NCBI GenBank assembly: GCA_951406725.2
Contig: OX597825.1
Span: 40,610,001-40,674,000 of the forward strand
DNA length: 64,000 nucleotides
Source: Octopus vulgaris
Taxonomy: Eukaryota
Direction: 5' to 3'
In this document: positions 2,224 through 61,039 of the stretch, piece by piece
How positions within the stretch are numbered: the stretch's first letter is position 1
How the letters are laid out: each line of letters begins with the position of its first letter
Translations under genes and position numbers: made by a program
Notes under the pieces: model-generated
What the model was told of the DNA's origin: nothing
Database searches by the model: none
What the model saw: only the letters and a program-made list of their open reading frames with translations

Positions 2224-3000
2224 CTAGCCTAAGTATCGGGTACTGCTCGAAGTATAAAGAATGTTAAAGGAAATAAATATACTTATTCTGATAAAAAATA
2301 TTTTTTTCAGGAAATTTCTATCAGATTGCGTGAGTATAAGCAAGGTTACTAAAACAAATCCTGAAATCAATCACATTATAATTTTGTAGAACTTCTAAAT
2401 GTACAATGTTTTCAGTGTGTCCTTTTATTGGGGTAAAAATAATAAATTCCAACTCACGAATATCCTATATATAATTGCCCATGAGAGAACCCAGGAGAAG
2501 CAATGTTAAGTCAAACAACCATGAGAAATTGTCATTGATATTTGCTTATCGACATAGCAAAACTTAGTTTCTCTGGGAACTGGAGTCGTTTAAATTCAAA
2601 GGGAAAGTCATATGGGATTAACGGGATCCGTGGAATGATACATTCTCACTCTTATATTTCCCAGTGCTAATTGCTGCCTCTTGGACATGAGATTGCATCA
2701 CTTTCACCACCAGTCTGGTGCCATTGCACAGGTGAGGTGGATCCATATTCCTAAGTGGAATGATTGAAGTCCCCTTTTTAAGTATTAAGTTGTGCGGTGG
2801 CATCCCAGATGGGTGTATAGATTCCAGGAACTCAACGTCGATGGATTTGAAAGACTGATCTTGTTCTGGCAACAGCTGCAAGAGATCTTAATTGATTTTG
2901 TCGATAGCATCATCACGTGGACCTCATAGAGCCATTGGCTGTTGCTAAAATTTTGTGCAATGTTTTGAAACATGCATTTTGACAGTGGGTGTCATTTCTC
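2224..3000 (-). mobile_element. Helitron 3' fragment: PIF1-like helicase C-terminus plus 3' hairpin/CTAG
   Basis: EFLESIHPSGMPPHNLILKKGTSIIPLRNMDPPHLCNGTRLVVK, then frameshifted RIPLIPYDFPFEFKRLQFP..SFAMSI and FSHGQLYI (to ~2460); ends cgagcagtacccg...CTAG|T at 2224. Confidence 0.9.
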
Positions 3001-10222: not shown

Positions 10223-10290
10223 CTGATGATGATGATGATGATGATTATGATGATGATGATGATGATGATGATGATAATAATAATAATAAT
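10100..10290 (+). repeat. (GAT)n/(AAT)n microsatellite (LINE tail or target)
   Basis: Directly visible. Confidence 0.95.
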
Positions 10291-10797
10291 AAATGCTCTG
10301 ATGCAGTACAAGGCAGTGGCTTCTGATCTTAACTGATTGGAAGTGTTATCATGTACATTGTTTTGTCTTGGTATAAAAGATGGGCTACAGCAAATATTCT
10401 GCTCAATACCACAGATTTGCTTGTCAGTTATTTGCCCTTAATCATTTGACCATGTCCCTTAGTGGGGGAGCATCATAGCCATGTGTTGAGTGGGATTCTT
10501 TGAGGTTTGAATAATTCACCACTGCAAACTTGAGTGTTTTGTTCAATATCGTTAAACAACCCTTATTCAGGGACCTTTTGAGCGGGATAGGTTACTCAAC
10601 CAGAAGAAAATTCTAACTGGACCCCACCTGCAAGGTCATGCGCTGTTTACTTTGATATGAGATCACCATGTCGCGTACACATGGTTTTGATGCATGTGCC
10701 TAGTGTACCCTTATCAGAAGGGTAGTCACGATAGTATACTGGGCTTCGTATATTTTACCCCAGTATCACTTTGATGGCATGCACTGCTCCCTCATTC

Positions 10798-10800
<3 letters not shown>
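10291..10800 (+). mobile_element. Non-coding ~0.5-kb (AAT)n-embedded retroposon, copy 1
   Basis: Homologous to 11628, 12738, 28935 and 32135; (AAT)n on both sides; no ORF. Confidence 0.85.
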
Positions 10801-10861
<61 letters not shown>

Positions 10862-12622: not shown

Positions 12623-12687
<65 letters not shown>

Positions 12688-12737
12688 GAAGAAGAAGAAG
12701 AAGAAGAAGAAAAAGAAGAAAAAGAAGAAGAAGATCC

Positions 12738-13250
12738 CTGATCTTAAGTGATTGGAAATGTTATTAAACATGTTTTGTCTTGGAGTCAAAGATGGGATGC
12801 AACAAATATTCTGCTCAATACCACAGATGTGCTTGTCATTTGTTTGACCTCAAACAGTTGAGAATGTCCCTTGGTGGCTGACAGTATGCGTGTCTCTAAT
12901 AACAAGCAGAAGTAGTGGGAAGCATCATAGCTAAGTGCTGAAAGGAATTCTTTGGGGTTTGAGTAATTTACCTCTGGAAACATGGTGTTTCGTTCAACAT
13001 CCTTAAACAACCATTATTCACGGACCTTTGGAGCAGCATGGGTTACTCGCCTGGATATAATTCTAAGTAGGCTCCTCATACAAGGTCATGCACTATCTAA
13101 CCTGATAGGGAATCACCATGTCGCACACATGGTTGTGATGTATGTGCATAGTCTACCTTTATCAGACGAGTAGTCATGACGAGTATATTGGACTTCGTAT
13201 ATTCGTACTCAACTGTCATCTTGATGGCATATCCTGCTCTTTCACTCAAT
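12738..13250 (+). mobile_element. (AAT)n-embedded retroposon, copy 3
   Basis: ctgatcttaagtgattggaa...gatggcatatcctgctctttcactcaataat. Confidence 0.85.
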
Positions 13251-13439
13251 AATGATAATAATAATGATAATAATAATGATAAGAAGAAGAAGAACAACAA
13301 CAACAACGAACGCCTGGTTAAAGATCACGAGATGCATAAAAACCTTCATTCTGTCACACAGTTGAGAAAAAATTGCCTTTGATTTCATGTGTGATACCCA
13401 GCCTAAACAACCAGCGAGAAATGCGACAAGTGTCTTGCC

Positions 13440-14747: not shown

Positions 14748-14965
14748 AAGCCATTGAGCTAGCAGATTCGTTATCACGCCAAAAAAAGTACTTATTGGCA
14801 TTTCGTCCGTCTTTACATTCTGAAGTCAGCTTCCACCGAAGTTGACGTTACACTTCATCCCTTTTGGGGTTGATAAAATAAGTGTCAGTAGAATACTGGG
14901 ATCGATCTAAAAGTCTTCGCTTCACGTCCGAGATGTCTGCCTGTGTGCCAACATTTCGAATCAAT
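14748..14965 (+). mobile_element. Meta-domain SINE, decayed
   Basis: gagctagcagattcgtta...atttcgtccgtctttacattctga...cttcatcccttttggggttgataaaataagt. Confidence 0.7.
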
Positions 14966-16699: not shown

Positions 16700-16840
16700 G
16701 TTGCAAAATATGCCACAAGAGCAAGAAATTTAGTTAGGCTTATTACATCGACCCAGTATTCAACTGGTACTTATTTTATCGACAAGGCATATTCGACTTT
16801 GACGGAATTTGAACCCGGAACGTAACGACGGACGAAATGC
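16700..16840 (-). mobile_element. Meta-domain SINE fragment
   Basis: actggtacttattttatcgac...ggaatttgaacccggaacgtaacgacggacgaaatgc. Confidence 0.7.
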
Positions 16841-17423: not shown

Positions 17424-17638
17424 ATCCTTTCTACTGGAAACACAAGGCCGCATATTTGAGGAAGGGATTAAGTCGATTACATCAACCCCAGTGCGCAAAT
17501 GGTACTTATTTAATCGACCCTGAATGGATGAAAAGCAAAGTCGACCTCGGCGGAATTCAATCTCAGAACGTAGCGACGGACGAACTACTGCCAATCATTT
17601 CGTCCAGCGCACTGACGATTCTGCCAGATTTTGCCCTT
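17424..17638 (-). mobile_element. Meta-domain SINE
   Basis: ggtacttatttaatcgaccctgaatggatgaaaagcaaagtcgacctcggcggaatt. Confidence 0.85.
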
Positions 17639-17804: not shown

Positions 17805-18015
17805 GACGGTGAGCCGACAGAATCGTTAACACGCCGAACACAACGCTCAGCTGCATTTCGTCTATCCTGACATTCTGAGTTTAAACTCCGGCAAGGTCAA
17901 CTTTGCCTTCCATCCTTCGGGGTCGATAAAGCAATTACTAGTTGCGCACAGGGCTCGATGTAATCGACTCAACCCGTCTCCCGAACTTGGCCGTCTACCA
18001 AAATTTGAGATCAAT
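17805..18015 (+). mobile_element. Meta-domain SINE
   Basis: gacggtgagccgacagaatcgtta...ctttgccttccatccttcggggtcgataaa. Confidence 0.8.
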
Positions 18016-21012: not shown

Positions 21013-21013
<1 letters not shown>

Positions 21014-21230
21014 AAATATAATATGTGACAATTATTTGGTAGCATGATAAACCTCCGAATTTCGGATGTCGAGGTGGAAATCTACGCCGGCTATGAAAAA
21101 AGATCTATTTTTCATAGCGTTTTTTACGATGACCCGATAACTGAAGAGATGCTAGCGTGGGTTTCCGCCCCGACATCCGAAACCCGGAGGTTTACCATGG
21201 CTACCGAATAATTGTCACATATTATATTTA
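21013..21230. mobile_element. Foldback element (~75-bp inverted arms) with a hammerhead-like core in the right arm
   Basis: atatgtgacaattatttggtagcatgataaacctccgaatttcggatgtcg... pairs with ...cgacatccgaaacccggaggtttaccatggctaccgaataattgtcacatat; ctgaaga at 21141, gaaac at 21179. Confidence 0.75.
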
Positions 21231-22640: not shown

Positions 22641-22667
22641 CACACAAACATATATATATATATATAC

Positions 22668-23075
22668 AATAATTATTATTCGAGGGAATAAAATCCAAAC
22701 TTACAAGGAAAAACAATTCAATTTAGAAATACTAAATCAAATTACACACAATATAATATGTATATAAAATATTAGAAAAAAACACCATTTATCTATTCAA
22801 AATGAATAATTAACTTACACCATCTAGAAAATTACATATAATAGAAAAGTTAAAATTAAAATAACAATTAAAAAGTAAAGATTAAGTAAATTGCAAAAAT
22901 AATAATAATAATGTATCTACCTATTATATACATTTTTATTATTATTTTTGCAATTTACTTAATCTTTACATTTTATTGTTATCTTAATTTTAACTTTTCT
23001 ATTATATGTAATATTCTAGATGGTGTAATTTAATTATTCATTTTGAATTGATAAAAGGTGTTTTTTTATCTTATA
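22668..23075. mobile_element. AT-rich foldback element: ~90-bp head + ~300-bp near-perfect palindrome
   Basis: Arms 22771-22916 and 22928-23072; head ccaaacttacaaggaaaaacaattcaattt shared with 33733 and 44330-44398. Confidence 0.8.
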
Positions 23076-23076
23076 T

Positions 23077-23112
<36 letters not shown>

Positions 23113-26598: not shown

Positions 26599-26638
26599 CA
26601 TTATTATACATATGTATATATATACTATCTATACCTGT

Positions 26639-26865
26639 GGCGGCGAGCTGGCAGAAACGTTAGCGCGCCGGGCGAAATGCTTAGCGGTATTTCGTCTGTC
26701 GTTACGTTCTGAGTTCAAATTCCACCGAGGTCGACTTTGCCTTTCATCCTTTCGGGGTCGATAAATAAAGTACCGGTTTCGCACTGGGTAGATGTAATCG
26801 ACTTAATCCCTTTGTCTGTCCTTGTTTGTCCCCTCTATGTTTAGCCCCTTGTGGGTAGTAAAGAA
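26639..26865 (+). mobile_element. Meta-domain tRNA SINE, well preserved
   Basis: ggcggcgagcTGGCAGAAACG...GAGTTCAAATtcc; central gcctttcatcctttcggggtcgataaataaagtacc resembles the Meta/MESC SINE core. Confidence 0.9.
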
Positions 26866-26897
26866 ATATATATATATTACCTATATTATTATTTATA

Positions 26898-26949
<52 letters not shown>

Positions 26950-32674: not shown

Positions 32675-32679
<5 letters not shown>
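32135..32679 (-). mobile_element. (AAT)n-embedded retroposon, copy 5 (most complete)
   Basis: Minus strand aaatgccctgatgcagtaccaggcagtggc...gaactgctctctcactcaataat; (ATT)n on both sides. Confidence 0.9.
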
Positions 32680-32735
<56 letters not shown>

Positions 32736-32737
32736 TG

Positions 32738-32881
32738 AGAAGAATATTTGGTGTATCCCATCTTTTATACCAAGACAAAACAATGTACATGATAGCACTT
32801 CCAATCAGTTAAGATCGGGAGCAATGAGAGCCACTATCTGGTACTGCATCAGGGCATTTATTATTATTATTGTTATTGTTG

Positions 32882-32973
<92 letters not shown>

Positions 32974-33098
32974 TGAGAAGAATATTTGGTGTATCCCATC
33001 TTTTATACCAAGACAAAACAATGTACATGATAGCACTTCCAATCAGTTAAGATCGGGAGCAATGAGAGCCACTATCTGGTACTGCATCAGGGCATTTA
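32738..33098 (-). repeat. Two near-identical 5' stubs (~120 bp) of the same element, tandem with (ATT)n
   Basis: gagaagaatatttggtgtatcccatc...ggtactgcatcagggcattt at 32736-32860 and 32975-33098. Confidence 0.9.
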
Positions 33099-33119
33099 TT
33101 ATTATTATTGTTATTGTTG

Positions 33120-33205
<86 letters not shown>

Positions 33206-33732
33206 ATTGTCGTCGTCATCATCCGCAGCAGCAGCAGATTGAGTTTCTAATGTATGTTGCCCGGATGTATTATGTTAGTAAACAAATTACAACTTTTGAC
33301 ATGGAATGGCGAGCTTTCGCTGATTATTCTACACAGGTATCTTCTACTCTTGCTACCTGTTTTTACAAAATGTCGAGAGCTTCTCTAGCAATAATTCTCG
33401 TATAAGCATCTCTGCATAGCATATTATGATGTTACGATCAAGTTTTAAAGATTCGGTTTCAAGTATTTTTGTCATCGCTTCCAAGGCTACATTTCTGTGG
33501 TTCTATAAATTGTTAAGCATCTGAATGTAGGTCAATGTTAATGCTTACATTTTCAGCTAAATCTCAATCATTTGACACAACTTTTAGAAATTTAAGTAAA
33601 AGAATCGAAAACGTATTTCTAGCACCCTTTATTACGACGAGTTCAGGGTGGTTGAAATACCTCTGATCATAGATATTTTGAATCACTGTTTACCAGGAGT
33701 AAAAAGGGACATGAAACATATATGTATATATA

Positions 33733-33799
33733 TAACAATATTAGAGAGTACGACTCCAAACTTAGAGGGAAAAATTCAATTTGCTATTAAATCGAATTT

Positions 33800-33839
<40 letters not shown>

Positions 33840-34231
33840 TAGAGAAAACCACTATTATGTAATTCAAACAATGGTAGATATAAATCATACCATATAGAAT
33901 AAATGAAATTTATGATACAACATTTACCTAGATCACAATAAAATACATAATAATAAATAAAAGTATATATTAAGCAAATTGACCTGAGGAAGTGACTATA
34001 GTTTCAAACTGAAATGATTTTGGATCGATTAAATTTAAATTTAATTGTAATTCTAATTGAAGATATAGCCACGAAACGTACGTAGTGTATTTACTAATTA
34101 TATACTGTTTATTTATTATGTACTTTATTGTGATCTAGGTAAATGTTTTATCTTATATTTTATTTTTATGTATTGTATGAATTACGTCTGTCATTGCTTC
34201 AATTACATAATATTGGCTTTTCTGTAATTTA
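33733..34231 (+). mobile_element. Foldback element with a central hammerhead ribozyme
   Basis: Head 33733-33803, (TA)n, inverted arms 33836-33983 and 34085-34231 enclosing the hammerhead. Confidence 0.8.
33971..34097 (+). ncRNA. Type I hammerhead ribozyme with long stem II
   Basis: CUGAGGA (33984)-a-GUGaCUAUAgUUUCAA...UUGAAGaUAUAGcCAC-GAAAC (34073)-GUAC-GUA; predicted cut after 34084; stem I imperfect. Confidence 0.75.
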
Positions 34232-34288
34232 TATATGTATATATATATATAGCGATATAGAGAAAAACATACACATAGATAGATACAC

Positions 34289-34348
<60 letters not shown>

Positions 34349-37300
34349 TCTATTTAAGTATTCATTGTTTTGGAATATATACCACTGCTTCATTTTCCTG
34401 CATAATAGAGAAAAGGATAGAGGAAAATGTGGTGCAATTGCAGATGAATAAGGACACATTTCAGAATAAAATTCAAAATGAATGAATGTGTAAGAGACTT
34501 GTTGCATAATATTGACAATAAGATAAGGTATATTAAAAAATATATCAAGATATAAAGCCCTGTATATATTTAGTTAAACAGTAATTGAATTTTTCTCTGT
34601 ATATCTCTATCTCATTAATTTCTTTATAAGCTTGTACCTTTTCTTTCGGAATAAAAACGGAAATATATCTTGCATAATTATTTAAGACATTTCGTCAATT
34701 TTATAGGCTTTTATAATCCGTGCTTTCAAATTTACTCAAAATTTTGGAAGCTACAGAATACTGTCTTTAAGCGAATACTTCAATATATTATTATGCATAC
34801 ATTAAGGGATTAAAAATATAGTCCTCAATTATATTTCTTTCAAGAACTCAAAAAAAAAATAATAACTTTGAAGACAACGATATAATTCTCGCTACTATCT
34901 GAGATTTTATAAGAAACTTAAAAATGGAGATCATATTCTTTACTATGAATTCCTTGTTGTGGTAATTAGGTTGAGCTTTTAGCGCTGCAAATTCAATATG
35001 CTACATCATGGGAACAATGATTAAGTAATCATAAAATTTCTTTGAATTATGACTGAGAAAATAAGTGACAGAGGTGTTGGAAATGTGATCAGATCATCAG
35101 TTCCAATCAAAAGACAAGCACTGTGTTGTGCACGCAAGGACAATCAAAATAATTTGAAATTTGTTATGGCCTAAAATATCCTTTGTTATATGTCGTATGT
35201 AATGATTATTTCCCGGACTTGGGAGAATATAAAGCACCGAATCGGCGTATATCAGTGGCTTAATGTCATTCATAGAGAAAATCACTAATATTCTTTTCTT
35301 CCTCCTTATAACCACTCTCTGTACATTTTGGCGCCGCAATTAATGGGGACAGAGCTACATAAATGCAAAAAGTGTTTGAAACAAATCTGCTTGGAGTATT
35401 CACGTTTTTATTAGAAATGTGACCTAATCTAGAATAGATTACACGATAATTAGCACTATATTGGCTTTCCAGCTTAGCATGCCGCTTTCTATGAAGAATA
35501 TATGGATATTCATTGTCTCAGCGTTTCTGGGTTGCAGTATATTGCCATAGAGGATTTTAAAGTCTATACCATGAACTTTTGTATTTGCTATGATAGCCTC
35601 CTTGTGTCGTCTCATATAGAAGCAGTCATTCTTTACCGAAAATTTCTGTTTATATATGTAGCTATTCTTTATAGTTACGCTGTTCTTTTCATATAAGCCC
35701 TTTCTGTCCTTCATGAAGAAGTTTATTCCAGTTGAGGTAACTATATATCTTATTGCTTACTGTCGAAATTAGGAGTCAGATAGATGTTCAAAATGTATGC
35801 ATTTATGTTGCAGCTTTAAGGTTATTCATTTAGTCCACATTACACCTATAGCCTAGATACCTAATGCCATCCTGAGTTGATTTTATGTACAGAAAACTCG
35901 AGAATCACTATCAGTGTGTCACATAAAGACACCTCAATCAAAGACACAGTAATTTTATATATCAAAAAACAATATAACTTCTAGAAAATATGCAACAAGA
36001 AAACTCAACGTAACAACAAATAATAGGTACATTATCAATGGAGATTTCAAATAGCAAGCGCACATCTGATCTGCACCGAAGGAAATGCATCACGATGTCT
36101 GTTTCTCACATTTAACCCAAGATCATATTTTAGACCCTAAAACCTATCAGATCTCTAAAAATATTAGGTGAGTGCCAAACTTATGCACTAATCCCGTACC
36201 ATGAATTAATTCATTAACACGCTCCACAATATATCTTTCTCAAAATTATTGTCTCGTATTACTTCTATTTCGACTTCTTATACAGCTGCTCCTTCTCAAC
36301 AGATATACTTCCGATTAGACACTTTCGAGTCATACATCTCTCCTCCGCACGTCGTTCATATCGTGTATACAGCCCAATACTCCGCAAATATGCCACACCT
36401 CGTCCTTACTAAATAATATTAGATGTTTGAAATTATTTTCTTGTGCAATTTTCCATTAATTTGAAAATGTTCAAAATAAAAGTCAACTATTTTCATTTCG
36501 ACTACACACTACAAAAAAAAAAGAAGTAGTAAAAATTATAGATTATAAAATATTCTACTTAGTGGAGAAAAATTTGCTCGGTGGATTAAGTATTGAACCT
36601 CTTTGTCCATGTGACTTGTATTAAAGTTTTCTGAGGGTTGACTGTGTTTATTGATTTAAACGTGCATCAGCCCCATAACTACCCTGATGTATCAGGCCAA
36701 TGATCAAAGTTAGTCAAGCCATGATTATCTTCTGTAATACTTGATTTAACTTTGACAGCAGGTCATGTGGCCATACAGATGCTCGTTGACGAATAATTTA
36801 TGCAGTAAATGAAGACATTTTATCTAAAATTGCACTTTTAGAGATAAGATTAATCATAATCTAAATGATTATTCCGTGCAAATGAAAAAATGACTAATAT
36901 AGTGTTAAATATTTTACCTTTAGTAGTCTTCTTAGACCGCTTTAATGAATAATAGGCTGATATTAATTTTGATATTTCCCCAAAGTATATTTTTATAATT
37001 TCGTATTTAGAAAATGTATGATTACATCATATATTTACTTTTTAATAGTTAAAATATATTGCTTTGCTACATCAAACATCGTCGTACCAGGAATTCTATA
37101 CAACAGATATAGAACATATTGAAGTAGATTATAAAACCGCAGCGTGCTTCTTTTACACACACACACACAAACACAAGCACATATAACTGTGTGTGTATAT
37201 CTACTATAATGTGGCGTGATTCTATTTTCTAAAAGTCTTCCGTTCATCTCGATATTTACTCTAAATAGTGTTTTACATTTATCTGGGGAAATTGGATATG

Positions 37301-39027: not shown

Positions 39028-39420
39028 TTTCTACTCTAGGCACAAAGCCCGAAATTTGGAGGAAGAGATCCAGTCGATTAGATCGACCCCAGTAGGCAAC
39101 TGGTAGTTAATTTATCGACCCTAAAAGGATAAAAAGCAAAGTCGACCTCGGCGGAATTTGAACTCAGAACGTAGTGGCAGACGAAATACCTATTTGTTTA
39201 CTACCTACAAGGGGCTAAACACAGAGAGGACAAACAAGGAGAGACAAACGGATTAAATCGATTATATCGATCGCAGTGCGTAACTGGTACTTAATTTATC
39301 GACTCCGAAAGGATGAAAGGCAAAGTCGATCTCGGCGGAATTTGAACTCAGAACGTAATGGCAGATGAAATACGGCTACGCATTTAGCCTAGCGTGATAA
39401 CGTTTCTGCTAGCTCGTCAC
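39028..39420 (-). mobile_element. Two Meta-domain SINE units in tandem (dimer or nested)
   Basis: aactggta..taatttatcgac..aaaggat..aa.gcaaagtcga.ctcggcggaatttgaactcagaacgta occurs twice (39100, 39282) with different tails. Confidence 0.85.
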
Positions 39421-43500: not shown

Positions 43501-44149
43501 TTTTGTCATTGGCTGAGAAATATTTCCCAAGGGAGCGTAAATTGTATGCGTACATTCCTATGTGCAACAATCATACATACGCAAATACGATCATACAAAC
43601 ATCCTAAACACACTGGTTTTATATGCGTATACAGCAGGCACTAACTCACATGTATTCAAACACACACGCACACACACATACACACACACACACACATACA
43701 CACACACCTACACCATACACACATATACAGCGGATACATACGCAGCTGATATATACAACTGCCACATATACGCGCATGTGAGTACTCACACGTGGCTGAT
43801 ACACGCCCGTACTCTTATGTACACACACCTTGGCAAACATGCAACATTGAACTCATGCCATAAGCTCTCACCCAGATACCATCTTACACACGTGCAAACT
43901 CGTGTTCCACACAAGCATAGCTGATATACACATATAGGCTCCAGACACCCTCATCGAAACAATCATACATTTCGAATAGACACACACACCCTCACTAGCC
44001 ATTTATTCAATGAGTATAAATGGAAACAAATATACGAAGAAATGATTATAAGTTCATAATTATTAACCACTAACTTTCCATTTTCTTCTCTTAATTTGAT
44101 ACGGATTACACCCACCCCCCCGCCATATATATTTATATATATATATTAT

Positions 44150-44277
44150 TCTACCAATTATATAGTTTTTATTATTTTTTTGCAATTTACAATCATCGGT
44201 ATATTATTGTTATTTTACTTTTCTAGATGGTGTAATTTAATTGTTCATTTTGAATTGATAAACGGTGTTTTTTTCTA

Positions 44278-44319
<42 letters not shown>

Positions 44320-44398
44320 GTGTGAAATTTAATTTAGTATTTCTAAATTGAATTTTTCCCTGTAAGGTAGGATTAATATTCCCTCAAATAATTATTAT
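44150..44398 (-). mobile_element. One arm + head of the 22668 foldback family
   Basis: ttttttgcaatttac...ttctagatggtgtaatttaatt.ttcattttgaattgataaa.ggtgtttttt matches 22940-23066. Confidence 0.8.
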
Positions 44399-46391
44399 AT
44401 ATATATATATATATAAATGCCTGTGTCTATGTGATTGTGTGTCTGTGTATTTATATATTTCTGTCATTCAGTATAAACACGGTGATGCTTTTCTACGTTT
44501 CTATTTACTGCTACGAAATTGTTTTGAAATAGAAACACATGCACACAACAATATATGCATATATATTTTTCATCTATCTATGATATTCACTTGACCCTTT
44601 TAGTGTATTTCTCTAACGTCCTTGGTTTCCGAGAAAGACATCAGAAAATATTATCTTACTTCTAAACCTCTTTTTAGATCTCTTTAGAAAGTTTGTTAAT
44701 CATCCTCATCATTTAGTTTTATCTCAACTCCTTTACTTCGGTGCGGAACTTAAAATAGAGAAATATTCTTTCATAAAACTACTTTTTTGTGAAAATGTGT
44801 TATATTGAACTTGTAACTGGGAAATGAAATGCAGAGTTGTTCTTGGCCTAGTTCATAAAGCGAGGAGCCTAATGGTGCAAGCTATTTTACCAACTGTATT
44901 CCGATTCACTCAAACAAACATTGAGTGAATAAGGATGCTTTATTTTCATTCGACTCGTCATCGATTGAGTTCTACTACATATCATTTTAGTAGACTTAGT
45001 TTTAAAATGTGTCAAAGCAGTAAACATCACGCAATATTTCCGAAAGAAAATATCTAGGATTATTTGTGACAGTAGAGTGTAATTTCACAGAGTTCGGCGT
45101 TAATTTTTGAGTAAGCAACGACGCATAGGCTACGTGAATTAATTGTCCTCATGATAATTAAAGAACAGGAGTGTTTAGTGGTATTTGTTTTGTCACTATA
45201 GTCAACCTTGGCCAACATTGATCGAGCAAATTACAATCAAAATGTATTATCATGTCCACATTTTTCTGCAATAGGTATGCATAATTCTAATATATTAGTC
45301 AATGCATGTTTTCATCCTTAAAATGATGTAATTTGAAAGCGTCCTCGCTGTTATACTTAGCAGGAAAATTGATTATGTAGAGGCTCTCTTTGCCTTTGTT
45401 GAAGCTAGTGAAAACGGATGTGTTGTTTTATTTGTTGGCAGTGCAATTCGCTTTACGTTTTTTTTTTGTGCTACATTAATAATGCAGCATTTAATATGGC
45501 TACGATATATGCTACTGGAGCTGCAAATAATTTAGCCGGCGTTTTTATATTTACTCCTTTGTTCGGAAGAAGGACGGTTATAACGATCCCTGTACGAAGC
45601 TCATCTTACTACTCCCATTGTTGGAACAGTTATGTTTGTTTATGACGACTCATCGACTAGTAAACAGACACGGATTTTCTCCAGAGAAGGAAATGTGAAA
45701 AGCTACTGATGATATCTTGGAAAGTTCAAAACTAATTTGTAAAAATCGTTTTGCGTAACAGGAAAATATATTTTTTTTCCAAACATAGTGGAGCTGTGCT
45801 GAAACTTTTCCCTCGAGTAAAAGTTAAAACATTAACACTGATGATGAGGAGAATGATGATGATGAGGAGAAGGATTGAGATAAAGGCAGATTTGACAAAA
45901 ATGGCCACGACGATGATGTTAAGGAAATGGTCATCATCGTAAAGTTAATAATAACTGTAAGGATGTTGATGACAATGATGAGAATCTGTGGTTGTGGCAT
46001 AGAACGTCGTGGTGGTGGTGTTGGTGGTGGTGGTGGTGTTGACTGTCGACCTTCTGTTTGTTGTCGTTGGAGCGTTTAGTGTTTACGTGAATGGTATTAA
46101 TCAGGATGGAGAATACGGCAGAATGACAGGGTGATGCTGCTTTTAATGATAAGAATGAAGAAAACAATGTAGATAGATATGTAGAATAGGTTGATAAGAA
46201 AGATGGGGATATGGAAGGGAGAGGAAAATAAAATAATCCTCATGGATTTAATAGAGCTTTCTTCAATATATTTTTTCCATTGTGAACAATATATTATATA
46301 ATACAGATCTCTATTTAAGAGATGAGGAATTATGTATATTATTTGCATTGTTTACATTTGACGGATATTTGTTCTCACCTTGTTTGTTGTA

Positions 46392-50649: not shown

Positions 50650-50855
50650 ATTTTGGCAAAAGGTCATCAATTTTGGCGGAGGGAGTAAGTCAATTATATC
50701 GACCACAGTGATCAACTAGTAATTTTTTTATCGACTCCGAAAGGATAAAAGGCAGAGTCGATCTCGGCAGAATTTGAATTCGAAACGTAAAGGCGGATAA
50801 AATGATGCTAAGCGCTTTGCTCCACGCTGTAACGATTCTACCTATTCGTCACCTT
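50650..50855 (-). mobile_element. Meta-domain SINE, decayed
   Basis: tatcgactccgaaaggataaaaggcagagtcgatctcggcagaatttgaa. Confidence 0.8.
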
Positions 50856-53324: not shown

Positions 53325-55975
53325 AGCACCCAAGAGCAACCTGACCTTGTAGTGAGGTAGGCATTGACGACTCTCTGTGAATACATAAGCACATTATCAC
53401 ATATGGAAAACAAATTCGTATTTCTTTTTGTTTCTTCTGATTTCAGTATTGTTTTCCTTACTCGTCCGTTTCTGCCTTGATTTTTATTCCCTCCAATATC
53501 AAGGACAATTTACACACAGCATTGCACAATAGTTTTCATTTCAATCTCGAGTTTTAACGTTGCTCTCACTGTCTTCTTTTGGTTCATAAGTTTGGTATTA
53601 ATCTTGACAAACCATCTGCATGTCTCAATTTTTCGATAGCAAATACTTCATCTTGAAGTCGTTATTCAGTAGGATCGTTCCCCAGCGCTGCAATCTGTTG
53701 ACTGCATGAGTGGGAATATCCGGTTTTGATCCATAGATAGACGAAAGTGGGAGGCGGTCTGTCTGCAAATGGAACCTTCTTCCGTGCATTAAATGTATGG
53801 AATTTTTTACTGCAAATATGATGGCTTATGCCTTTTTTGTATTTGACTTTAGTTTTTCTCAGCCGACTATAATGAACGCAAAGCATGAGCTACTGCCAAG
53901 CTGCCATCTTCATACTTGTGTAAAATCACAGCTCCAGTACCAGTTTCACTATCATCTGCTGCCACTACTATTTCCAAATTCGGGTCAAAATGGGATAACG
54001 ACAATTCCGACGTTAGGGCGTTTTTAATTTCTTCAAAGGCTTTTAGTCATTTGTCCGACCAGTTCCACTTAACGCCATTTTTAAATAGGTTTTTTACAGT
54101 GCTCTTAAATCGTGTATATTTGGTATGTATACTTGGTACTTATTTGAACATCCCCAAATGCTTGTAACATTGTAATGTTCGGCGGGGGAGTCATAGTTTT
54201 TAAATTGCTCGCCCTAGTCGGGTCTAGTCTGCGTTCATTTCCATTTATAATCTGCCCTAGATATTTTATTGTTGACATAACAAATGCACACTTTCGAAGA
54301 CCTTTTTGACATGCACAGCATACTGACCACGAGATTCACTTTTTATGAGGATGTCGTCAAAGTAAGCTGCGAGAATAATGTCCATAATTTGTTGGAAAAT
54401 ACCAGGTGCTACATTTATACCAACGGAAAGTCGATTGAATTTGTACAAACCTTCATGTTTATTATCAATAATTTTGAACATTCCTCATCGACATTTACCT
54501 GCAAATATGTTTCAGATAGGTTCAACTTTGAACACAATTTTCCTCCATTCAACTTTGCAAAAACATCTTCCAAACTTGCTAACGGTTAACTATATGACAT
54601 CAAACATCTGTTTAATCCCATTGAGAAATCAGTGCCTACTCGGATTCTATTATTTTTTCTTGATATAAACTGCCAGGGATGCCCAGTTTGAGTAATCAAT
54701 TTTTTCAATAACGCCAATTTTTACAAGTTTATCCAATTCTTCGTTGACTTGATTCAACGCTGCGAAAGTTAACATTCTTTTTGGTTTAAATACCGGTGTA
54801 GCGTTTTCTTTCACTTGAAACTTCGCCTCTGTTTTGGTGCAAAGATTGAATTCCTGACAAAAAAAAACTTCAGGAAAAGTTTGTTTTAATTCATCTTATA
54901 AATTTTCCGACGCCTTATTTTTACTGACAGAAGTACCATTTATATTCATACAAAAAATATTTATGGGTAGGTCCCATATGTTACATAGCTCCATCCAGAT
55001 TTTTCCAAAAAATTTGTAGTATTTTTTCTAGGTTTTTTCCACGAAATGTAACATCGCTTATCATTTCGCCCATAAAATGCAATTGTATTCATGAAACACC
55101 TCACACACTTATCACAGTTTCCTTTAATCGAGGTTTCTTTAATTTTAACCATGCATCTGTATTAATTACTGTGGTTTCACTGCCTGTATCCAATTGTAAC
55201 TTGATATTAACATTATTCATGTTTATGGACACAAGATTTCTTTTCTGAGCCTCGCTTAGAATTATTTTTATCAATACATTCTTTCTAGAATGTTTTTATG
55301 TTTGTCCCTTTTTCTTGCCACTGTACGATGTGAGATTTTAAGCCCGATTTTTCCACGATCAAAACATTTACGATTTTTTAAAGGGTCAATTACTTTTAAA
55401 ATGTAAATCTTTGCAACCGTAGCATGGATTTGGCCTTAACTTTCGTTTTTCTATTTTCTTGTCCCTTTCAGGACGACACGTATGTATCTAAGAGCTATCT
55501 TTTTCTTCAATTGTATCTGCGTCACGTCTTAAATTTATAATCCTCTTACATTCTTGAGCCACTGCCTGTAGAATTAATTTTTGGTTCTGTTCTAATTTTG
55601 ATAATAAACGGAAACGTATATCAAAATCTTATCTTGCTTTCACATTTGAACAAAATTAAACATTTGAATAAATCTGGGGTTAATTCATATAATTTGAATT
55701 TTTCAACTCCGTTAACAACACCAGGATATGTGACAAAATCATCATCTTTAACTAAATTTAAACATTGACAACAAGTATTGAACAGGGAACTTCTTTCACT
55801 AAACATTCTCGATAACAAATTAACTGTTTCATCGAAAAAAATCTCACCTGATTTCTTCGGAAGAATATAGCTACAGTATTTTTTGTGTTCGGCAGAGGAT
55901 AACTTTCTTAAAAGTAGGTGCACCTTTTCGTCATTCTAATTGAAGATTATTCGTATATTCGAAAATATGAATCTG
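53325..55975 (-). mobile_element. Gypsy/Ty3 (K02A2.6-like) retrotransposon remnant: gag-CCHC-PR-RT-RNase H
   Basis: HLLLRKLSSAEHKKYCSYILPK, CYGCKDLH, LQLDTGSETTVI, GLYKFNRLSVGINVAPGIFQQIMD, YFDDILI, AVAHA, SICDNVLMYSQRVV; many stops. Confidence 0.92.
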
Positions 55976-60522: not shown

Positions 60523-60528
<6 letters not shown>

Positions 60529-60711
60529 ATCCCAAAATGAATACACAAAGAGAAAACACAACAACGCTAGGACGTGGTACAAGTATAGTATTATTGGACG
60601 CTCAGGAAAGAAGGAGAGTTTAACGTTTCGAGCGGAGCTCTTCGTCAGAAACATAGGTAAAGAAAAGATCTAAAGAAGGGAAGACAGAAAAAAAATCGCC
60701 AACGCGGTCAC
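60523..60711 (-). mobile_element. ~190-bp (TA)n-flanked element carrying a minimal hammerhead (pLTR-like)
   Basis: Contains 60618-60652; a related 3' part lies at 59560-59643 on +. Confidence 0.75.
60618..60652 (-). ncRNA. Minimal type I hammerhead ribozyme (35 nt)
   Basis: GUUU-CUGACGA-A-GAGC(ucc)GCUC-GAAA-CG-UU-AAAC; palindromic AACGUU stem III. Confidence 0.8.
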
Positions 60712-60736
60712 ATATATATATACATACGACAATATA

Positions 60737-60780
<44 letters not shown>

Positions 60781-60781
<1 letters not shown>

Positions 60782-61009
60782 CTTTACTACCCACAGGGGG
60801 CTAAACACAGAGGGGGACGAACAAGGACAGAGAAACAGATTAAGTCGATTATATCGGCCCCAGTGCGTAACTGGTATTTATTTAATCGACCCCGAAAGGA
60901 TGAAAGGCAAAGTCGACCTCGGCGGAATTTGAAGTCACGACGTAGCGACAGACGAAATGCTGCTGAGCATTTCGCCCGGCGTGCTAACGTTTCGGCCAGC
61001 CCGTCGCCT
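60781..61009 (-). mobile_element. Meta-domain SINE, well preserved
   Basis: Reverse complement of the 26639-26865 family. Confidence 0.9.
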
Positions 61010-61039
61010 TATATATATATATACACACACATACATTCT

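Follow-up and report, generated by a model that had tools for sequence, protein, structure and literature searches.

The foldback at 33735-34230 is likely a dead, 5′-truncated insertion of the hammerhead-bearing 3′ end (pseudo-LTR, pLTR) of an endonuclease-bearing Penelope-like retroelement (PLE), which probably entered a TA microsatellite in the form of two cDNAs joined head to head. The order of parts at this locus, here called A, is a candidate target-site duplication (TSD), a tail, an inverted copy that starts from the predicted ribozyme cut, the hammerhead core, a sense copy without the tail, and the second candidate TSD (Table 1). It lies in a 64-kb stretch of AT-rich, microsatellite-rich, animal-type sequence, with repeats that may be of an octopus-like kind, and the whole stretch is referred to as the window. 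Its family is high-copy, and relatives exist that are without the core or without the second arm.

Table 1. Positions, in the coordinates of the window, of the parts of locus A and of its two relatives
Feature	Position	Strand	Remarks
Left candidate TSD copy, a TA tract with one G interruption	33718..33734		17 bp; identical 17-mer at 34231-34247
One-sided tail of ~70 bp, the element's 3′-most sequence, on the inverted copy only	33735..33802	-	77-79% identical to the tails of B and C
(TA)17 separating tail from arm, probably an expanded internal AT seed	33803..33836		B has a short AT-rich stretch here, C a TA tract
Inverted, 5′-truncated copy of the element's 3′ end	33837..33983	-	homology reaches the base matching +1 past the predicted cut
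Hammerhead core, 5′ half (CUGAGGA), with extra A between positions 9 and 10.1	33984..33991	+	
Helix II, an imperfect 81-nt hairpin closed by G10.1-C11.1	33992..34072	+	-13.9 kcal/mol; 3′ strand deeply covered in family contigs
GAA, 2-bp helix III with palindromic loop ACGUACGU, A17	34073..34084	+	predicted cut after 34084
Tail-less sense copy of the T-rich 3′ end of the element	34085..34230	+	homologous to B and C; high depth in family contigs
Right candidate TSD copy	34231..34247		17 bp; same 17-mer as 33718-33734
Relative B: tail, inverted copy and sense copy, a foldback without hammerhead core	22660..23085	+	centre about 22911-22932
Relative C: one sense copy with tail, set between TA tracts and lacking both core and inverted arm	44140..44400	+	

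The two arms of locus A (33837-33983 and 34085-34230) are inverted repeats in which 124 of 146 aligned positions are identical (84.9%), and folding of 33733-34231 gave -150.5 kcal/mol with a z score of -14.5, none of 100 shuffled sequences being as stable. TA tracts stand on both flanks. The locus is asymmetric, with 33735-33802 falling outside the inverted repeat, and the last ~10 nt of the inverted arm (to 33983) could alternatively belong to helix I as its native 5′ strand. The 17-mer that encloses both tail and foldback is found at only three other places in the window, one on the plus and two on the minus strand; it is plausibly a target-site duplication, with only moderate weight because it is microsatellite-like and a chance match stands at roughly 1 in 20. 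Between the arms lies a type I hammerhead motif, with the core consensus and all three helices of that type: CUGAGGA (33984-33990), an extra A (33991), helix II (33992-34072), GAA (34073-34075), the palindrome ACGUACGU (34076-34083) and A17 (34084), after which the cut is predicted. An earlier note, made from the letters of this stretch, had described inverted arms of ~145 bp in a nearly fully paired fold, (TA)n flanks, the cores CUGAGGA and GAAAC, a stem II of ~80 nt, and a palindromic loop, with a predicted cut after 34084. Our analysis confirms this observation and adds the extra A, which was not in its account. The closing pair of helix II has a probability of 0.98.

A descriptor requiring the core, G10.1-C11.1, three helix II pairs, a palindromic helix III and no fewer than 3 of the 5 pairs of helix I, which was composed post hoc with the motif already known, matched two sites in the real window (locus A, and 60648 on the minus strand) and none in 300 dinucleotide shuffles. 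The second site is a compact PLE-type minimal hammerhead with an extra A, an 11-nt helix II, a palindromic ACGU and a paired helix I, in an insert of ~190 bp between TA tracts (60525-60712, minus strand, core at 60648); the insert is probably the stub of another Penelope-like family. Rfam (Rfam 15) gave no match at gathering across the 64-kb window. In 33600-34400 it gave 20 matches up to E = 10, none of them a hammerhead, and a generic core pattern whose gap is limited to 30 nt is blind to the motif at locus A. Hammerhead patterns had no match in viral contigs, metagenome contigs or prokaryote genomes, a 22-nt arm motif had none in viral contigs, and a plasmid search gave no match. One Bermanella MAG locus that matched the 22-nt arm motif was alike over only 23-24 nt, and was taken as chance.

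As modelled, the copy of the ribozyme at locus A is probably weakened. In the monomer, the pair probabilities are 0.98-0.99 for helix II, 0.21 for the first pair of helix I and 0.006-0.008 for helix III; in this copy G faces G at the third pair of helix I, and the minimum-energy fold is more stable than the active one by 2.5-2.7 kcal/mol. The palindrome ACGUACGU forms a self-duplex of -9.8 kcal/mol, which is consistent with dimeric action. The modelled dimer lies 11.6 kcal/mol below two monomers, a figure to which AT-rich palindromes in helix II may contribute and to which we give no evidential weight. The ribozyme would cut mainly as a dimer via the palindromic loop III, perhaps with the aid of protein.

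Relatives of locus A were sought within the window by self-comparison and by profile search, and two were found, B and C. Relative B folds with a z score of -25.1, and its arms are 92.5-93.5% identical. The tails of B (22666-22760) and C (44318-44400) are homologous to that of A, and in all three loci this tail of ~70 bp is found at just one end, past an AT tract, being borne by the inverted arm in A and B. The identity of arms within a locus (85% in A, 92.5-93.5% in B) is higher than that between the arms of A and either B or C, which is 54-67% in a multiple alignment and 70-77% pairwise. The target is TA at each of the three loci, and the flanks of B and C give no TSD information. An adjacent inverted, 5′-truncated copy in head-to-head orientation is found at loci A and B, and a further foldback joint is found in two public sequencing runs, X1 and X2, described below.

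That two loci with long inverted arms and differing centres both sit in TA tracts would also suit a DNA element of the MITE or Foldback type that targets TA, ends in long terminal inverted repeats and captured a hammerhead-bearing fragment in its centre; the TA flanks at locus A would mask a 2-bp TSD. We regard this as very unlikely. The conserved tail lies outside the inverted repeat and on one side in 3/3 loci, the candidate TSD is 17 bp long and lies outside that tail, the single-arm copy C exists, and symmetric, fixed terminal inverted repeats are not present in all copies. Moreover, the core runs into the right arm in family contigs (34006-34126), and there is no transposase match among the 148 window ORFs analysed. 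The earlier note had preferred an RNA-intermediate element to a DNA MITE and had proposed comparing the termini across copies. The tail at one end only is what this comparison gave, and it argues against a MITE; the RNA-intermediate reading is likely right because of the PLE traits of the hammerhead, the asymmetry, the single-arm relative and the 17-bp candidate TSD outside the one-sided tail.

For a view of the family beyond the window, 4 of the 24 public runs listed (best share of words 0.29) were compared with 33837-34229 at 80% likeness. The contigs matching the stretch numbered 743, 667 and 700 in runs X1, X2 and X3, with a summed depth of about 12,000-51,000 over 34019-34102 and a maximum of 228,000 close to where the left arm has its 3′ end; it should be kept in mind that run depths are not copy numbers and that holes in depth can stem from filtering. 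In the bin that holds the arm-core junction (33977-33990) depth was 15.5, 14 and 6.9, and no listed contig spans the whole of 33837-34229; it is unlikely that the arm-core junction is common to the whole family. The 5′ side of helix II is thinly covered (500-1,700), the locus A copy being divergent there, and the 5′ half of the core (33984-33990) is poorly covered, and the drop in depth may partly reflect divergence or filtered contigs. We infer that CUGANGA is present in the family, the motif itself not having appeared in family contigs. In contig pieces spanning 34006-34126 the core is continuous with the right arm, and two long contigs, in X1 and X2, continue for ~310 nt upstream of 34006 in sequence that does not fit the stretch. 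A joint of 33956 to 34094, seen in X1 and X2, represents another core-less foldback, with its centre ~10 nt past the cut; the remaining 7 listed joints were uninformative, most of them being explicable by one arm matching both sides.

The variants of the family pair better than the locus A copy. A C at 34087, which completes helix I, makes up 73%, 53% and 90% of depth in X1, X2 and X3, and a T at 34063, which has an A opposite in the loose-end consensus and closes a mismatch in helix II, makes up 73-83%. Among 40 of the 86 variant rows, none falls at 34073-34077 or 34083-34086; at the CpG sites of the loop, variation in family contigs is 4-17%. There was no step in depth at 34084 in X1-X3, and no pile-up of ends among those listed, which speaks against a strong signal at the cut. 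A fourth run, X15, which is RNA by guess only, held 14 family pieces, none of them at 99% or higher likeness to locus A; the other RNA runs among the 24 had word shares of at most 0.08 and were excluded from the comparison.

The lack of a variant at those positions of the 3′ core among the 40 rows, together with the very stable fold and the fact that the inverted arm joins the core exactly at helix I, would be expected of a self-contained, non-autonomous foldback "retrozyme", in which the rod, hammerhead at its centre, is the unit that undergoes transcription, selection at the RNA level and copying. Against this stand the depth of 7-16 in the junction bin versus 10^4 nearby, the lack of a spanning contig among those listed, and the two relatives, of which B is a core-less foldback and C has one arm. 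The arms themselves differ at 22 positions, of which 5 are G-U-compatible and 4 are A-C mismatches as read on the plus strand (p = 1.0, in a small sample), and on this count, small as it is, selection for RNA structure in the arms was rejected. Further, there is one hammerhead and no tandem unit, where non-LTR retrozymes need two in tandem. We find the self-contained rod very unlikely, and the reading implied in the earlier note, of a viroid-like rod with a catalytic junction as the functional unit, is not supported, given the core-less or one-armed relatives, the low depth at the junction and the absence of a wobble bias.

Pfam was run on the 148 longest of the 174 stop-free frames of at least 65 aa in the window, low-complexity frames having been removed first. 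It gave 6 matches, none of them near locus A and none to a transposase or GIY-YIG domain, and there was neither an RT nor a GIY-YIG domain near the stub. That no coding sequence is seen at the locus would also fit an inverted, truncated insertion, by the same insertion mechanism, in which the inserted element was a short PLE derivative without autonomy, from a family of solo pseudo-LTRs or non-LTR retrozymes, and according to the part of 10.64898/2026.07.22.740005 consulted non-LTR retrozymes stem from PLE pLTRs and are often monomers. We regard this version as very unlikely: the window is without a tandem unit, a long helix II and an additional nucleotide following position 9 mark PLE-type and not canonical retrozyme hammerheads, and the contigs in X1 and X2 extend upstream of 34006 with sequence foreign to the stretch. 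Penelope-like families have been reported in Octopus vulgaris (PMC13282606, consulted in part). Naiad_Obim, Naiad_Ovul and Naiad_Omin were considered as parents and set aside, being unlike the stub by eye, with 0/6 motifs in the portion of the PMC8557442 supplement consulted.

A pathway from an intact PLE to the present foldback can be envisioned from what has been described of PLE insertion, where one protein cuts and extends both strands and two RT start sites delimit the tail (PMC11167929, in part). The GIY-YIG/RT protein of an intact copy elsewhere would have nicked the two strands of the TA tract ~17 nt apart. Both DNA ends would then have served as primers for reverse transcription, which began at the tail end from one of them and at the tail-less start site from the other. 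One cDNA would have read through the ribozyme core and the other would have stopped at the cut site, possibly on a self-cleaved template, and the cDNA ends would have annealed via the complementary strands of helix I, leaving the hammerhead centred in the foldback, followed by neutral decay of the arms to 85% identity. The central place of the hammerhead in the foldback is probably due to the microhomology that helix I provides, on which the two cDNAs joined, and the arms of locus A are best read as a by-product of the element's insertion mode. A simple snap-back of one cDNA is less likely, since it cannot place the tail on the inverted arm alone, though the part of PMC3846280 (Arkhipova et al. 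2013) consulted favours self-priming at such junctions.

The position of the junctions relative to the predicted cut deserves separate consideration. The inverted arm of A begins at +1 from the cut, the sense copy of B begins at +1 to +7, with its first bases doubling as the end of the inverted arm, C begins at +4 to +7 of A's cut, and the foldback of X1 and X2 begins at about +10. One junction thus falls within ~10 nt after the predicted cut in 4/4 loci, a tiny sample, and there are exceptions in that the sense copy of A includes the core and the inverted arm of B is at about +18. Copies that start just past the cut are expected if the cleaved 3′ product is a main template of reverse transcription; helix I microhomology, or stalling of the RT at hairpins, could give the same pattern. 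It is a tentative possibility, which we hold with some doubt, that locus A belongs to an abundant PLE family with a hammerhead of ~80-nt helix II, missed by Rfam and by the published descriptors, whose genomic stubs record self-cleavage in vivo. If true, the role of PLE hammerheads would become testable by genome-wide counts of junctions, and a genome-wide pile-up of junctions at the cut would argue, from events in vivo, that the ribozyme has a role in processing. That role is called unclear in the part of PMC8557442 consulted. In the portion of PMC11167929 used here, the PLE ribozyme is protein-assisted, cleavage is dispensable for insertion in vitro, and no RNA-seq reads end at the cut.

The window holds other repeats and remnants. 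A GC-richer palindrome of ~220 bp (21013-21230), with arms of ~73% identity by BLAST, adjoins a TA/TG tract; it has a small central hairpin with no convincing hammerhead and resembles an old palindromic DNA element. A fragment of a Pif1 helicase 2B domain (2621-2887, minus strand, E 2.7e-14) is probably a Helitron remnant, and fragments of RVT_1 (E 1.8e-6) and DUF7083 (E 2e-7) at 54269-54484 and 55624-55935 (minus strand) probably come from a decayed LTR-type retroelement. A 238-bp tandem duplication with 99% matches (32677-33208), whose unit ends in (TTA)n, is related to repeats of ~600 bp in inverted orientation at 10235-10857 and 12629-13285. Finally, a SINE-like dispersed family has many copies in both orientations (14756-14910, 16742-16840, 17458-17627, 17807-17980, 26611-26943, 39059-39418, 50650-50842 and 60712-61033).

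Viroids and viroid-like satellite RNAs can form a rod with a hammerhead, and the predicted rod of locus A is like them in this respect. Locus A differs in being a linear repeat of genomic DNA, AT-rich, with one hammerhead in one polarity and with arms that decay without a wobble bias. With the animal non-LTR retrozymes (Cervera and De la Pena 2020, PMC7229834; Li et al. 2026; both consulted in part) it shares a non-coding, AT-rich sequence of a few hundred bases and a type I hammerhead with a weak palindromic helix III. These elements are defined as tandem units (PMC7229834; 10.64898/2026.07.22.740005), whereas locus A is not tandem, has one ribozyme only and is of inverted architecture.

The hammerheads of PLEs are closer. 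As described in the consulted portion of PMC4209133, they have a nucleotide that sits after position 9 and before 10.1, the pair G10.1-C11.1, a palindromic 15.2-16.2 and loop 3, and a long helix II, their activity is weak and needs dimers, and they occur mostly as single motifs in truncated copies. Locus A shares with them the extra nucleotide, G10.1-C11.1, the palindromic helix III and loop 3 that imply a dimer, the short native helix I and the single motif in a truncated copy. It differs in the helix II region, which is 81 nt as against stems of 6-8 bp there, and this length also exceeds both the 7-17-nt spacer of the Craig et al. 2021 descriptor and the 35-50 nt of its "half core", of which 8 cases are given in the part of PMC8557442 consulted. 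In the literature covered we found no PLE hammerhead with a helix II of ~80 nt; the supplements of PMC4209133, Repbase and Dfam lay outside that scope and may hold the family. With a helix II of this size in view, descriptors built for short stems may well miss a share of the PLE hammerheads.

The architecture of the insertion finds its counterpart in the endonuclease-bearing (EN+) PLEs (Penelope/Poseidon, Neptune). In the consulted text of PMC8557442 (Craig et al. 2021), these insertions have an adjacent inverted, 5′-truncated copy, a tail of 30-40 bp that is often one-ended, and (TA)n targets, and in that of PMC3846280 (Arkhipova et al. 2013) the pLTRs are inverted head to head, with the tail on one of them and a TSD of 8-10 bp round the whole insert. 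Locus A shares with them the head-to-head inverted and truncated copy, the tail at one end only, the TA-microsatellite target and the hammerhead near the 3′ end, and a TSD may likewise enclose the whole unit. Its tail is longer (~70 bp vs 30-40) and so is its candidate TSD (17 bp vs 8-10), and, the stub being without a reading frame, we assign it to no clade. Locus A thus fits the published insertion pattern of PLEs and is likely not a new viroid-like element. For now it amounts to an ordinary stub of a dead retroelement, and it illustrates that a foldback of "MITE-like" appearance, in a TA microsatellite of an animal genome, can be what is left of a Penelope element.
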